NCBI GenBank assembly: GCA_045542485.1
Contig: JAZQLC010000027.1
Coordinates: 11,859 to 75,858, forward strand
Origin: Acutalibacteraceae bacterium
GTDB taxonomy: Bacteria > Bacillota > Clostridia > Oscillospirales > Acutalibacteraceae
DNA length: 64,000 nucleotides
Direction: 5' to 3'
Shown: positions 1-26,784 of the stretch, one piece after another
Position numbering within the stretch: the stretch's first letter is position 1
Layout: the number at the start of each line of letters is the position of its first letter
Made by a program: the position numbers and the translations under genes
Notes under the pieces: generated by a model
Seen by the model: the letters and a program-made list of their open reading frames with translations, nothing else
What the model was told of the DNA's origin: nothing
Databases searched by the model: none

Positions 1-355
1 CCCTTCCTATAACTGCACTGTATGGTGTATAACCCGGGTCTTCAACATTGTTGTGGTCACCTTTTGTTCTGAAGGATTTTTCCTCTGTGTTGATTTTTAC
101 AACACGGTGAGAAAACCATCTTTCGTTACCTTCCTTCTGAAAAGTAAGAACATCTCCAACTTCGATATCTTCAAAATTAACTTCTTTTGTAAAAACTAAA
201 TCACCTTTATTAATTGCCGGACTCATACTGTCTGAAATAACATAATATCCGTTGTAGCCTGACAATTTCGGAGCAAATGAAACGGTAATTAAAAAGAGAG
301 ATAAAAGAATTATAAAAGCTGTTAAAATTTTACTTACTGTCTTTTTCGCTTTCAT
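1..355 (-). CDS. sipW: SipW-type (S26B) signal peptidase I, partial (C-terminus runs off the window start)
   Basis: Absent from the ORF track because it is open to position 1. Reverse translation from ATG 355-353 gives MKAKKTVSKILTAFIILLSLFLITVSFAPKLSGYNGYYVISDSMSPAINKGDLVF...WFSHRVVKI...RTKGDHNNVEDPGYTPYSAVIGR. It has a TM anchor plus the SDSMSP Ser box, an HR His box and a GDxN box, as in the two other SipW-like ORFs here. Its start overlaps the upstream ORF end by 26 nt. Confidence 0.7.
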   Translation of the reverse strand, partial: MKAKKTVSKILTAFIILLSLFLITVSFAPKLSGYNGYYVISDSMSPAINKGDLVFTKEVNFEDIEVGDVLTFQKEGNERWFSHRVVKINTEEKSFRTKGDHNNVEDPGYTPYSAVIGR

Positions 356-905
356 CTTCGTCACCGCTACGAGCAATCAAAACTATGTCTTTCACTTCTG
401 ACGCCATAATAACCAGCATCGGAAGAATAACTACGAGGAAAAATGCGATTCTGTTTGTCTGAAGGAAGTTTACAGCCTTACCTACAGCAGGTATTTTAAA
501 CTGGACTTTACCGTAAATTCTGTCTTCAGTAACTAAATCCGAGTCAACAACTTTATTGGCATCGCCTTTAGTTTCAAACTTTACTACGCCATTTTCTTCA
601 ATAATATTGTTAATACGGTGAGTTACGGGACCTCCCTGCAACACGGGGTCAAGTGATGAAAATGTTATTACATCACCTTTTTTTAACTCACTTGTATCTG
701 TTTCCTTAATTATTACAATGTCGCCTATTTTATATTCAGGGTCCATACTTGGTGAAATAACACTCATAACGCTATACCCTGCAATATTAACTACTTTTGT
801 GCCGTTTGCACCTTTGGGAGTCATAAGAACAACTGCCAACAAAAGTAAACAGACTACAAAAATTACTGCCGAAATAATCGATACTAACTTTTTAATAATT
901 TTCAT
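330..905 (-). CDS. sipW: SipW-type (S26B) signal peptidase I with second C-terminal TM and acidic tail
   Basis: 191-aa ORF with an N-terminal TM anchor and the SPSMDP, VTHRI and KGDANK boxes. It has a C-terminal TM (RIAFFLVVILPMLVIMA) and then an SGDEDESEKDSK tail. Confidence 0.8.
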   Translation of the reverse strand: MKIIKKLVSIISAVIFVVCLLLLAVVLMTPKGANGTKVVNIAGYSVMSVISPSMDPEYKIGDIVIIKETDTSELKKGDVITFSSLDPVLQGGPVTHRINNIIEENGVVKFETKGDANKVVDSDLVTEDRIYGKVQFKIPAVGKAVNFLQTNRIAFFLVVILPMLVIMASEVKDIVLIARSGDEDESEKDSK

Positions 906-935
906 TGTTTAATCACTTGATTCTTAATTATTTGG

Positions 936-1565
936 TTATGAATTACTTATTACTGCATCTACATTTTCAATATTCACAGACATATTTGCTGCGTCTTCAA
1001 TTGTTTTAGTTTCATCTATTTTAAAAGAGAAATAAACTCTGTATGTGCCATCTAAGCGTACTGAATATTCAAAAGTTTCTTCTTTATTGAGAGTTATCTC
1101 ATCTGCTGAATATCTATAACCCGGGTCCGTAGTTTCTTCTCCGTTTGCAGTTATCAGAGAAACTCTGCGGTTTAATATAACAGATGATGTAAGATTACCT
1201 GTTACATCTGCTATCTTGTCTAAATCGAGTGTGATTTTATATCCTGCTTTTGCATCTTTAAATTCTGCCATATATGTATATTCCGCACCGGGGAACATAT
1301 TTTCAAGAATAATCTCCTTGTCTGAAATCTTTTCATATTTGACAATATCTTCTGTTCTTATTGCTATTTTATCGTTTTCATCTACGCCGAAATAAATATT
1401 AGCGAATGTTGATGATTCATTCTTAACATCAACTTTTTTAATCTGTTCTACCGAACTTCTGTCCATAATAGCAAACCAGCAAAGAGTAACCGCTACCAAA
1501 GCTATACCTGTGACTATAACCATCATCAGACTTTTGGCAGAGTTATTTTTTTCTTTCTTAGCCAT
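936..1565 (-). CDS. TasA/camelysin-like secreted protein (putative SipW substrate)
   Basis: 209-aa ORF with RBS AGAGAGG 8 nt upstream. It has an N-terminal signal-anchor (LMMVIVTGIALVAVTLCWFAIMD) and a beta-rich mature part with an FPGAEYTY motif resembling the PGD motif of TasA/CalY-type proteins. It lies immediately upstream of two sipW-type genes. Confidence 0.5.
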   Translation of the reverse strand: MAKKEKNNSAKSLMMVIVTGIALVAVTLCWFAIMDRSSVEQIKKVDVKNESSTFANIYFGVDENDKIAIRTEDIVKYEKISDKEIILENMFPGAEYTYMAEFKDAKAGYKITLDLDKIADVTGNLTSSVILNRRVSLITANGEETTDPGYRYSADEITLNKEETFEYSVRLDGTYRVYFSFKIDETKTIEDAANMSVNIENVDAVISNS

Positions 1566-1600
1566 ATTCTTTACCTCTCTTTACTGATTCTTCTTTTCCT

Positions 1601-24961: not shown

Positions 24962-25105
24962 GAATAATTCCTCCATAAAAATTTTTTTGAAAGTTTTACT
25001 TTCATTTTTGAAAATTTATATCCAATATGTGTTGATGATTTTAAGGGGAGAAAAGTTACTTAAGGAACTTGCTTAATTTAAGAAAGTGTGTTGTTCACTT
25101 TTTTC

Positions 25106-25987
25106 CTAAACAAGCTCCTCGTTTTCGGCTTCTTTGTCTATAATATGGAACATCATAGACAGCTTAACCTCTCCTCCCATAATATTATCAACACATTCAG
25201 GATCCCATCCTTCAAGCCAGATAACAACTGTATATTTGTCAATCGCGCCTGATTTAAAATTGGTTATCTTTCTATCCATAACCTTATTCTCTTTAGTAAA
25301 GTACTTATCGATACCGAATTTTGCATATTTATCATTTTCGGTACCCTTGACAGGTTTTTTACCGTAAGTAATTGCTTCACCGTTTCTGTAAACCTTTACT
25401 CTGACTGCTTCGTCAGCACCGAGATCTACCGAAAGGACATCAATCGAAACATTATAGTCTGCATCTTCTCTACCTACATTTTTAAGGTAGAAGGTATATG
25501 CTATGTAGTCAATTTCACCGTCTTTGTTTGCGTCACCGTTGTGGCTTCCTGAGTGGTTTCCGCTGTCAATATCCTCGGGCAACCATTCCTCAGTGATATT
25601 ATCCATATTTTCAACGGCTGTACCACGGATAAGAACGCCTGATTCGTAGTTACTGTCAGCGCTGGGTTTTCCGTCAGGTCCCACTCCGCCGTCTGCCCAG
25701 GCACCTAATCCGTAAGCCTGTTCATAGCTTTCACAAAGCGTGATACCGTATTTTTCAATTGCATCGGGGTCAAGGTTGACTGTAAATCGACCTGCCTGGT
25801 TTGCGTAAGTTACGCATCCGAAGAATATTGAAAGGAACAAGAGCAAAAGTGCAAGAATAATAACTACTATTCTCAAAAGCAACTTGTTCTTTCTGACTTT
25901 TTTTGCCGTAGTACGAACACCGTACTTTTCCATTTCAGGATTTTGTTCGTACATCGACATATAGTTTTTCGTTGCCAACTTGTACAA
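25106..25987 (-). CDS. Membrane-anchored/secreted paralog of the 24146-24961 protein (function unknown)
   Basis: 293-aa ORF whose start is uncertain, because the TTG at 25987 abuts the GGAG. It has a basic N-terminus, a TM ending ...FFGCVTYANQAG, and a C-terminal YTVVIWLEGWDPEC...VKLSMMFHIID that aligns with the neighbouring gene's C-terminus. Confidence 0.45.
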   Translation of the reverse strand: MYKLATKNYMSMYEQNPEMEKYGVRTTAKKVRKNKLLLRIVVIILALLLLFLSIFFGCVTYANQAGRFTVNLDPDAIEKYGITLCESYEQAYGLGAWADGGVGPDGKPSADSNYESGVLIRGTAVENMDNITEEWLPEDIDSGNHSGSHNGDANKDGEIDYIAYTFYLKNVGREDADYNVSIDVLSVDLGADEAVRVKVYRNGEAITYGKKPVKGTENDKYAKFGIDKYFTKENKVMDRKITNFKSGAIDKYTVVIWLEGWDPECVDNIMGGEVKLSMMFHIIDKEAENEELV

Positions 25988-26010
25988 CTCCTTTCTTAAG
26001 AGTTATCTGA

Positions 26011-26784
26011 TTACATGCTAATGTCTTTTTCTTTCATAAAATCGCCGTAAAGAGGACCTGACATTCTGTCAGCACCCATAGATTTGAGAAGCTCGGCTTT
26101 CTCTATGGTTTCAACTCCGCCGATCATAACCTTAGTTCCGATCTTCTTTGCAAAGTCGATAATACCCTGGAGCATATTCTGCTGACGCTCATTGATTTCA
26201 ATATCGCGGGTAAGAGAGGCGTCAATACCTATGTAGTCGACTTCGTACTGACCGAGATTTGAAAGAGAAGTATATTCAACTCCGAAATCGTCAATTGCGA
26301 CGGAGAAGCCTTCTCTTCTCAACTCATTAATGTTCTTTGCGATGATTTCGCTGTCAGCCTGAAGAATGTGGTCTGTAATCTGGAAACAGAATCTGTCGTG
26401 TTCGATTTCTTTCTTGTCAACGATACTGATCATTGACTTGACAAAATTCTTTTTATTGAGATGCTTCAATGAAGTCCACAGGATTACGCTATGGATGTTA
26501 GCTCCGCGTTCCTCTGTTCTTATCATCGCTTCACAAGCCTCTTCAATTGTCCATTTTCCGATTTCAGCAATCTGACTTGATTTCTCAGCCACGGGAATAT
26601 AAGTCTCGGGCTGGATGATGCCTACCTTGTAGTCAGTCAGCTGAACGCGGGTATAATAATCAACTGCCATATTGAGACCTACATCGAAAACGGGCTTATA
26701 CAGAATTTCCATTGTTCTCGCTCTCGGAATTTTTATAGTCTCTTTTTTTTCTTCAGCAATATTTTCTTTTTTTTCTTCAGCCAT
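26011..26784 (-). CDS. Stand-alone EAL-domain protein, catalytic residues apparently degenerate
   Basis: The preferred start is ATG 26784, with GGAGAG 7 nt upstream. EAL-fold landmarks are ILYKPVFD, PETYIPVAE and AIDDFGVEYTSLSNL. Several catalytic positions are substituted: DYY replaces EAL, IGID replaces (I/L)K(I/L)D, and IGGVE replaces EGVE. Confidence 0.65.
   Translation of the reverse strand: MAEEKKENIAEEKKETIKIPRARTMEILYKPVFDVGLNMAVDYYTRVQLTDYKVGIIQPETYIPVAEKSSQIAEIGKWTIEEACEAMIRTEERGANIHSVILWTSLKHLNKKNFVKSMISIVDKKEIEHDRFCFQITDHILQADSEIIAKNINELRREGFSVAIDDFGVEYTSLSNLGQYEVDYIGIDASLTRDIEINERQQNMLQGIIDFAKKIGTKVMIGGVETIEKAELLKSMGADRMSGPLYGDFMKEKDISM

Follow-up and report, generated by a model that had tools for sequence, protein, structure and literature searches.

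We examined a 64,000-nucleotide stretch of DNA from an Acutalibacteraceae bacterium (contig JAZQLC010000027.1, forward-strand positions 11,859 to 75,858, assembly GCA_045542485.1), which is referred to here as the window and is numbered from its first letter. At its start lies a locus that encodes three SipW-type signal peptidases, the small proteins p276, p293 and p209, a giant secreted protein, a McrB-family GTPase with a DUF2357 partner, and a degenerate EAL-domain protein. Using the open reading frame (ORF) listing and the translations, we found that the minus-strand series is unbroken from the EAL gene to SipW-1, and the gene order given in a preliminary description of this DNA was thus borne out. 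The sizes reported there also hold, and the start of SipW-1 overlaps the stop of SipW-2 by exactly 26 nt, as had been described. That description had interpreted the genes as a composite surface organelle under control related to cyclic di-GMP (c-di-GMP).

Conservation of the locus across genomes

We compared the window proteins with the ORFs called in 33 loci from a scan of species-representative genomes. Counts were made over 22 loci from different species, each extending 5 kb or more to either side of the GTPase gene. We found that the order (EAL)-p293-p276-SipW-GTPase-DUF2357 protein-(variable large adhesins and small signal-bearing proteins)-SipW is kept in Acutalibacteraceae, Oscillospiraceae, an Acetatifactor metagenome-assembled genome (MAG) and MAGs labelled 'Bacilli', and that it survives a drop in GTPase identity from 97% to 47%. 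In all 22 loci the DUF2357 partner is encoded next to the GTPase; SipW and a p276-family protein are each encoded in 21, and the EAL gene was detected by BLAST in 13. The position of SipW-3 is always directly upstream of the GTPase gene, and a second SipW lies downstream of the DUF2357 gene in 14 of the 22. These genes are therefore conserved together, and we conclude that the locus is one conserved system and not a chance mosaic.

The GTPase/DUF2357 pair is the most conserved part of this system and its defining core. The preliminary description had listed an NTPase pair as one component among many; the pair is indeed present, but its status had been underrated, as it is the invariant element of the locus. 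A search anchored on SipW-2 also recovered the GTPase in 78 of 80 metagenome loci. These loci are not independent, because most come from a single prevalent human-gut species, whose cultured representative is Ruminococcus sp. TF12-2 and whose GTPase cluster holds 5146 sequences. Relatives of SipW-2 were at most 42% identical in a single metagenome scan, and exact-sequence look-ups of SipW-2 and of a GTPase 100% identical to that of the window yielded no record through which the contig could be extended past SipW-1.

Table 1. Positions of the genes, domains and candidate elements of the locus within the window
Feature	Position	Strand	Remarks
SipW-1	1..355	-	ATG at 355; N-terminal 118 amino acids only, gene truncated by the window start
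SipW-2 signal peptidase	330..905	-	191 amino acids
p209	936..1565	-	small protein, N-terminus like a SipW-type signal
Giant secreted protein	1653..18782	-	5709 amino acids from TTG; 5697 from ATG at 18746
Two palindromes, TGTAAAGT-N5/6-ACTTTACA	18876-18896 and 18910-18931		between the DUF2357 gene and the giant gene; candidate operators
KE-rich DUF2357 protein	18934..21288	-	784 amino acids
K/E/R/A-rich helical tail of the 784-residue protein	18934..20172	-	412 amino acids
DUF2357 domain of the 784-residue protein	20173..21288	-	McrC N-terminal, GTPase-activating domain
McrB-family AAA+ GTPase	21342..22895	-	514 amino acids from ATG at 22886
SipW-3	22957..23856	-	endoplasmic reticulum (ER)/archaeal-type signal peptidase I
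GC-rich terminator/attenuator-like hairpin after the p276 gene	24005..24034	-	12-bp stem, 8 GC pairs
p276	24146..24976	-	276 amino acids; 271 from the second Met
p293	25106..25987	-	293 amino acids
Degenerate EAL protein	26011..26799	-	262 amino acids; 257 from ATG at 26784
Sigma-70-like promoter candidate upstream of the EAL gene	26891..26919	-	TTGACA-17-TACAAT, extended TG

The GTPase, its DUF2357 partner and the CoCoPALM type

The only sequence matches of the GTPase in the PDB were McrB chains (6ut6, E=4e-6). Its motifs align in register with those of McrB at Walker A (GISGTGKTS and GPPGVGKTF), Walker B (ILDEMN and IIDEIN) and the signature motif (GTINNDDS and GLMNTADRS). In the last of these N-N-D-D aligns with N-T-A-D; it reads as NxxD in register and also contains NxD. 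All 86 distinct homologues compared keep these motifs unchanged. The homologues number more than 8000; the top 120 share 70% identity or more, come from Clostridia MAGs and carry the label 'hypothetical'. The GTPase is under very strong purifying selection, and this degree of conservation makes it unlike a defence gene.

The AAA+ core is the last part of the GTPase. It is preceded by a hydrophobic region with a predicted transmembrane helix at about residues 57-84, the stretch KKYVRVRK, and a heptad-like coiled-coil or acidic linker. Residues 54-146 gave only weak FtsL-like matches (E=0.05-0.09), short of demonstrating FtsB homology. In some metagenome contigs from the human gut the GTPase ORF is N-terminally shortened (464 amino acids) or split (420 + 83 amino acids; L040:10850-12244 and L058:10676-12223), and contigs of the same species mostly carry an intact 522-residue ORF. 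The shortened or split forms could be assembly errors, natural frameshifts or phase variants.

The 784-residue partner carries a DUF2357 domain that the Pfam scan misses on the full-length protein and detects once the K/E-rich tail is removed (residues 1-372, E=1.2e-10, 41.5 bits against a cut-off of 23.3). Homologues of this protein are annotated as DUF2357/PF09823. We modelled the domain with AlphaFold2 (predicted local distance difference test score, pLDDT, 79.9) and searched the model with Foldseek. No match was significant; the highest-probability match was McrC in the E. coli McrBC complex, and it was weak (probability 0.51, 91 columns). The 412-residue tail consists of 82% K, E, R and A with 10.7% hydrophobic residues, one proline and no glycine, and this helical segment sits where McrC has its nuclease. 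Domain scans of the whole protein, and of the protein without its tail, found no nuclease domain. Tail length varies among DUF2357 proteins, from none in the 377-residue proteins of Bacilli MAGs to about 410 amino acids.

A system with such features has been named CoCoPALM in one paragraph of Bell et al. (eLife 2024, PMC11090510), who deferred its analysis to a later paper. The name covers a large clade of McrB GTPases that resemble those of CoCoNuT systems and are joined to an FtsB-like domain of transmembrane and coiled-coil parts, with coiled coils on both the McrB and McrC homologues, an association with signal peptidases and a GTPase of the NxD clade. A literature search found no CoCoPALM follow-up paper, and the supplementary files of PMC11090510 are without CoCoPALM detail. 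We found that the window locus, judged by its predicted proteins, matches this type. It has a GTPase with McrB-family AAA+ motifs and PDB matches to McrB only. The N-terminus of this GTPase, with its visible hydrophobic helix, heptad-like linker and the weak FtsL-type matches noted above, may correspond to the FtsB-like domain. Like the published type the locus occurs in Bacillota, and it has the adjacent DUF2357 partner with its K/E/R/A helix and three genes positive for TIGR02228, and both the partner and SipW recur in the other loci. Unlike our locus, the published paragraph lists no subunits, regulators or cargo. New for CoCoPALM are the p276/p293 superfamily and its signal motif, the degenerate EAL gene at the head of the locus, the variable giant adhesins, the conserved hairpin and the operator-like sites.

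In the window pair, as in McrBC and CoCoNuT systems, neighbouring genes encode a GTPase, the core of which is homologous, and a DUF2357 activator. However, the window pair has neither a DNA- or RNA-binding N-domain nor a PD-(D/E)xK or HEPN nuclease, and it differs from them in the predicted membrane anchor of the GTPase and in its conserved linkage to secretion genes. A McrBC type IV restriction system was rejected as an identity for the pair: a K/E helix stands in place of the nuclease, and the GTPase N-terminus consists of a transmembrane segment and a coiled coil.

Peptidases, secreted proteins and regulatory elements

All three peptidases exceed the curated cut-off (51.85 bits) of TIGR02228, the model of archaeal/ER-type signal peptidase I, with 91 bits for SipW-1, 105.8 for SipW-2 and 81.1 for SipW-3. 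The next match of each is the SipW model (E=2.4e-31 for SipW-2 and 5e-21 for SipW-3), and the S-M-x-P serine, the H-R histidine and the G-D aspartate are kept in all three. SipW-3 has a second transmembrane helix followed by a K/E-rich cytoplasmic tail of about 75 amino acids. This tail (window 22957-23170) holds a duplicated EEIKKKA[IV]EEY[IL]AKQ unit, and in charge pattern it is similar to the K/E helix in the DUF2357 partner. The sequence makes it possible that the tail is a docking element between the peptidase and the GTPase pair.

In loci from 'Bacilli' MAGs the SipW directly upstream of the GTPase is a fusion of 646-662 amino acids, with a peptidase domain, a transmembrane helix and a cytoplasmic tail of about 480 amino acids (L021:8057-9997, L023:8054-9997, L028:8048-9997 and L027:2292-4280). 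A separate EAL gene is missing from all four. The tail ends in a stretch that is loosely like the DDFG...(K)ID part of an EAL domain. A SipW fused to a degenerate EAL domain, which if true would physically link the EAL module to SipW, is kept as a lead only, as hidden Markov model (HMM) scores were about 3 bits and not significant. Across loci the number of SipW genes ranges from one to three and that of signal-bearing proteins from one to six, and the 1:1 ratio of peptidases to substrates once proposed from this window is not conserved.

The protein p276 carries an N-terminal motif that is common to 64 ORFs of 200-1300 amino acids in related loci: a K/R-rich segment, about 20 hydrophobic residues and then [ST]-[YF]-A-W-[FLMI]. 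Large adhesin-like proteins are among these ORFs. The p276 motif is the canonical form, SATYAWFSS. In TasA the mature N-terminus is A28, and cleavage occurs after G-T-W-A (the TasA sequence was checked against PDB 8aur). We found that hhalign pairs LTSATYAWFSS of p276 with VGGGTWAAFND of TasA, and this alignment leads us to predict cleavage of p276 at T-Y-A|W-F. The assignment of a SipW-type signal to p276 in the preliminary description is thus supported, both by the TasA alignment and by the distribution of the motif.

An AlphaFold2 model of p276 built with 78 homologues (mean pLDDT 84.6) is all-beta, with a low-confidence or disordered N-terminal segment at residues 34-58. Its top Foldseek match in the PDB was the archaeal bundling pilin AbpA (7ueg; probability 0.89, E=5e-3). 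The match list also contains chaperone-usher or donor-strand pilins, and the TasA fibre (8aur) stands at rank 26. Searched by sequence, p276, p293 and p209 found no PDB chain and no PF12389 match at E<=0.1, and a p276 profile found no PDB chain either. The p276 family, which had no annotation before, is very large (7303 cluster representatives at 50% identity, E<=1e-3), and it diverges quickly relative to the GTPase. Since its gene is followed by a strong hairpin and the protein diverges fast, p276 is likely, from sequence and model, the major fibre subunit with a SipW-type signal.

The families of p276 and p293 are clearly related by hhalign (probability 97%, E=7e-11, 126 columns), and the C-terminal motif W-L-E-G-x-D-x-x-C is common to both. 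The predicted layout of p293 is a K/R-rich cytoplasmic N-tail, one transmembrane helix and an extracellular beta domain. Its orthologues have the tail, which is long, and the helix, with G-x-F-T-[VI] conserved after the helix and no conserved SipW motif. It was these shared features, together with the missing motif, that led us to read p293 as an uncleaved, membrane-anchored paralogue of p276 and not as the SipW substrate it had been taken for. On this sequence pattern p293 is a candidate for the base or anchor of the fibre. Roles analogous to this have been proposed for TapA and AbpB (PMC9245690).

The N-terminus of p209 resembles a SipW-type signal (VTLC|WFAI). Its alignment to the p276 family by hhalign covers residues 11-43 only, that is, the signal and the first 15 or so mature residues (33 columns, probability 40%, E=3e-4), and the p276-family HMM matches it at E=9e-3. 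We found no Pfam, NCBIfam or PDB match for p209, and jackhmmer against all locus ORFs did not find relatives. Positional analogues of 206-321 amino acids with AWF or SWF motifs adjoin large proteins in four loci (L012, L013, L033 and L092). The label 'TasA/camelysin-like', given to p209 earlier, is unsupported by any sequence search. The broader proposal that the small proteins resemble the TasA superfamily is retained for p276 as an analogy only, through its TYA|WF motif and its weak top match to AbpA, and is not retained as membership of the TasA family, as there is no PF12389 match.

The giant protein begins with a Sec-type signal (ALA|AT) and a T/E-rich linker of about 100 amino acids, after which GLUG-like, beta-helix-type modules are repeated. 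Pfam reports Peptidase_M26_N above threshold (37 bits) and Glug below it (17.9 bits against 20.5). The protein had been described as a giant GLUG adhesin; a giant beta-helix-type protein with no wall anchor it is, although the GLUG label rests on a sub-threshold match together with Peptidase_M26_N. No LPXTG-like motif was found in its last 200 residues, and no C-terminal hydrophobic segment or transmembrane helix; a sortase-anchored adhesin was rejected for these reasons. Orthologues are 48-79% identical in close relatives, and distant loci keep repeat-level similarity only.

Other lineages place different large proteins at the position of the giant gene, and in them more signal-bearing proteins and large adhesins follow the second SipW. 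In one locus (L011:17945-21520) a 1192-residue protein combines an [ST]-x-A-W-[YF] signal with leucine-rich repeats of the BspA type in five regions (Pfam LRR_5, E=1e-57). The large adhesin of some lineages therefore bears a SipW-type signal itself, unlike the giant protein of the window. The locus of the human-gut Ruminococcus ends with SipW, a small transmembrane protein, a signal-bearing protein of 321 amino acids and a giant protein of at least 2721 amino acids.

The EAL domain at the head of the locus is readily recognised by Pfam (E=2.9e-45). Compared with active enzymes it carries the substitutions E to Y, R to Q, N to W, E to Q, E to D, K to G, E to G and Q to S. Both glutamates of ExxE and one glutamate of EGVE are lost, and only the DD pair and one E of the catalytic residues are retained, which excludes an active EAL c-di-GMP phosphodiesterase. 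The orthologues at the head position are likewise degenerate in 12 other loci, covering all lineages examined. In two further, distant loci Pfam finds an HD_5+EAL fusion at the head position. By these residues the protein is a dead enzyme throughout the lineages examined, as its description as degenerate had indicated for the window. Because the domain is dead, c-di-GMP-related control cannot here mean enzymatic turnover and can only mean sensing or protein-protein regulation. By sequence, the EAL protein is thus a candidate c-di-GMP sensor or protein-interaction regulator.

Several candidate regulatory elements accompany the genes. The promoter candidate upstream of the EAL gene agrees with the sigma-70 consensus at 11 of 12 positions and is the best consensus match in 18500-27400. 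In 15 of 16 loci examined, the gene for the p276 orthologue is followed by an equivalent strong hairpin (-15 to -31 kcal/mol per 50 nt), with a sequence that differs between lineages; such a pattern is what one would expect if a major subunit is made at high level while read-through into the machinery genes is attenuated. The two palindromes ahead of the giant gene (2 matches of the motif against 0.00 expected) recur in the equivalent intergenic position of seven closely related loci, which suggests that the giant protein is expressed under separate regulation. Both the hairpin and the palindromes had been pointed out in the preliminary description and are real. An Rfam scan of the whole window at gathering thresholds returned tRNA only and no riboswitch, c-di-GMP riboswitches included.

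The minus-strand run extends beyond the EAL gene to 30114 through three metabolic genes outside the system, at 27132-30114: two Gfo/Idh/MocA-type oxidoreductase genes and a gene that reads as ThuA-like. We regard them as neighbours and not components, because they are syntenic in close relatives (L007, L008, L010 and L015) and absent from distant loci. From 2 to 26 kb the GC content lies at 0.37-0.43, after 0.36 in the first 2 kb, and the GTPase/DUF2357 pair itself has 0.38-0.40. At 18001-20000 the AT skew drops to -0.43, compared with about -0.05 to -0.13 elsewhere in the region. This drop is due to the A-rich codons of the 412-residue tail on the minus strand and is a coding-composition effect, neither a replication nor an insertion signal.

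Further along the window lies a complete SpoIVA gene with all three Pfam domains (47108-48658), and the host therefore is, or descends from, an endospore former. Genes for NAGLU, a GH42 beta-galactosidase and a serine dehydratase near it point to an ordinary chromosomal context. A tRNA gene on the plus strand (56425-56498) adjoins a minus-strand ORF of 1262 amino acids with phage MuF_C and LPD23 'polyvalent protein' domains. The domain content suggests an integrated mobile element or prophage remnant at the tRNA site (56425-60419).

A proposed fibre system and its alternatives

Our analysis suggests, with fair though far from full assurance, that this region is a chromosomal copy of a conserved CoCoPALM-type system for SipW-dependent surface fibres and adhesins. 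The composite surface organelle proposed earlier is upheld in its outline: the locus is one conserved system, variable adhesins are a regular part of it, and p276 has the expected motif and a model whose top match, though weak, is a donor-strand pilin. The 1:1 ratio, p293 as a substrate and the label given to p209 drop out of it.

One close comparison is the tapA-sipW-tasA operon of Bacillus subtilis. There too a dedicated SipW-type peptidase adjoins the secreted subunits, the cleavage motifs are in register (T-W-A|A-F in TasA and T-Y-A|W-F in p276), a minor anchored partner is encoded (TapA there, p293 here), and the subunit is beta-rich with a free N-terminal strand, which for p276 is read from the model. 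The window differs in its GTPase pair, degenerate EAL protein, giant adhesins and two to three peptidases, none of which the Bacillus operon has. The sipW-bsaA matrix operon of Clostridium perfringens also involves a SipW-dependent polymerising matrix protein. That operon is not known to contain a McrB/DUF2357 pair.

The archaeal subunit AbpA is a jelly-roll protein that polymerises by donor-strand insertion after cleavage by signal peptidase I, and no candidate chaperone or usher has been found for the assembly of archaeal bundling pili (ABP) (PMC9245690). AbpA is the top structural match of the p276 model; ABP loci differ from ours in having no dedicated peptidase (PMC9245690). A functional analogy, and no more than that, can also be drawn to type IV pili and type II secretion. 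These too pair signal-anchored subunits, marked by an N-terminal motif specific to their class, with a dedicated peptidase. They have a hexameric NTPase at the cytoplasmic side of the membrane, as is proposed below for the GTPase, and one major and several minor subunits, large tip adhesins among them. There is no homology between these and the window system. The peptidase of the latter is a serine signal peptidase I that acts at the outer face, its subunits are predicted beta-sandwich proteins and not alpha-beta pilins, and its NTPase is an AAA+ McrB GTPase and not a PilB-type ATPase.

From these comparisons we propose the following mechanism. Sec would insert the precursors as signal-anchored proteins, and SipW would cleave them after T-Y-A, in the register of the TasA site, freeing the N-terminal strand that is disordered in the monomer model. 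The beta-sandwich subunits, with p276 as the major one, might then polymerise by donor-strand complementation as in TasA and AbpA, and the uncleaved paralogue p293 would form a membrane-proximal base. The giant beta-helix protein and p209 may serve as cargo or adaptor particular to the lineage, with a palindrome-controlled promoter of their own, and the large adhesins would be displayed on or beside the fibre. On the cytoplasmic face a GTPase hexamer, activated by the DUF2357 stalk as in McrBC, could power or gate export, processing or polymerisation with GTP, and the dead EAL protein may couple the system to c-di-GMP or to a partner protein.

Several observations weigh against this interpretation. 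The cleavage site is the sole similarity between the p276 family and TasA; the hhalign comparison is not significant (probability 0.13), and PF12389 (Peptidase_M73, TasA/camelysin) is unmatched at E<=1 by all 78 p276-family members. The fold likeness of p276 to AbpA and TasA is weak, with no Foldseek match at E<=1e-3 and TM-scores of 0.24-0.32, and for this reason 'TasA/Abp-like donor-strand subunit' is a supported analogy and not demonstrated membership. The giant protein has an ordinary Sec signal, and no p276-like domain was detected in it. One locus from a Bacilli MAG (L025, 9980-12575) has the GTPase and a 363-residue DUF2357-only partner with neither SipW nor a p276-family gene within 10 kb. 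A signal-bearing protein of 663 amino acids follows the pair in this locus, which is the sole linkage exception among the 22. A search of the literature found no experiment on any member of the system. To our knowledge, TasA- and Abp-type fibres assemble without an NTPase, and an energy-requiring step is not an obvious need. Since those fibres need none, the role of the GTPase is the weakest step of the mechanism.

We hold only tentatively, at less than even odds, the specific proposal that a nuclease-stripped, membrane-tethered McrB/McrC motor has been repurposed as the energy source or gate for TasA/Abp-like fibre assembly and giant-adhesin display. Alternatively, the GTPase/DUF2357 pair may be a positioning or regulatory scaffold and not an assembly motor, with GTP hydrolysis acting as a switch. 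The FtsB-like anchor and a charged helix of about 60 nm could then position the fibre machinery or set its spacing, at the septum or the poles for instance, or hold SipW-3 by its K/E tail. Such a role, which we consider rather unlikely, would suit fibres that need no NTPase (TasA and Abp; see the discussion in PMC9245690), the weak FtsL/FtsB-like matches of the anchor region, termed FtsB-like by Bell et al. (PMC11090510), and the K/E-rich composition shared by the tails of the DUF2357 protein and SipW-3. It is also consistent with a tail that is highly variable in length and absent in Bacilli MAG loci. However, invariant Walker A, Walker B and N-x-x-D motifs, together with 47-97% identity, argue for a catalytic role under strong constraint.

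The remaining alternatives concern the locus as a whole. It is improbable that the locus serves conflict or defence, as its CoCoNuT relatives do, in which case the surface proteins would be sensors, decoys or receptor-blockers and the GTPase pair a signalling or effector module. The McrB clade to which the GTPase belongs is otherwise made up of type IV restriction and CoCoNuT systems, the AAA+ core of the GTPase matches the PADLOC defence candidate PDC-M26A at 6e-36, and the surface components are hypervariable. But the GTPase is very highly conserved, its N-terminus is a transmembrane and coiled-coil region where a nucleic-acid-binding domain would be expected, no nuclease or other effector domain was found, and metabolic genes flank the locus in conserved order both in the window and in its close relatives, which is not what a typical defence island shows; synteny and the lack of an effector domain led us to reject a defence island. 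By analogy with TasA/CotN and SipW in Bacillus spores, the locus might instead build a spore appendage or coat layer. SpoIVA is encoded in the same window, and TasA is deposited in the PDB (8aur) as 'spore coat-associated protein N'; the sigma-70-like promoter candidate at the head of the locus, the presence of the locus in Bacilli-labelled MAGs, which may not be spore formers, and the absence of adjacent sporulation genes from every locus inspected speak against such a structure, and we regard it as very unlikely. Domain names alone give the first impression of chance neighbours, a sipW-tasA-like biofilm operon into which a McrBC-like restriction island was inserted. This has almost no probability and is ruled out by synteny: the pair stands between SipW-3 and the block of adhesins and SipW-2 in essentially every locus, across families, with no nuclease and no marked GC shift at its boundaries.

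CoCoPALM has so far been a name only, and the CoCoPALM-type fibre system proposed here, with its relatives, gives a first parts list: a very large subunit superfamily with a diagnostic signal motif, dedicated SipW peptidases, an EAL regulator without catalytic activity, giant adhesins that are swapped between lineages, and a GTPase pair under extreme conservation. If the GTPase participates in assembly, this would be a new route for building Gram-positive surface fibres, and it would bear on how donor-strand exchange is catalysed without chaperone or usher in TasA and Abp fibres, a question raised in PMC9245690. A repurposed McrB motor, if true, would represent a new class of pilus biogenesis in Gram-positive bacteria, one that depends on NTP and is widespread among gut Clostridia, a very prevalent human-gut Ruminococcus included. 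Because the system is present in this cultured, highly prevalent gut organism (TF12-2), it is open to experiment and relevant to gut colonisation and adhesion.

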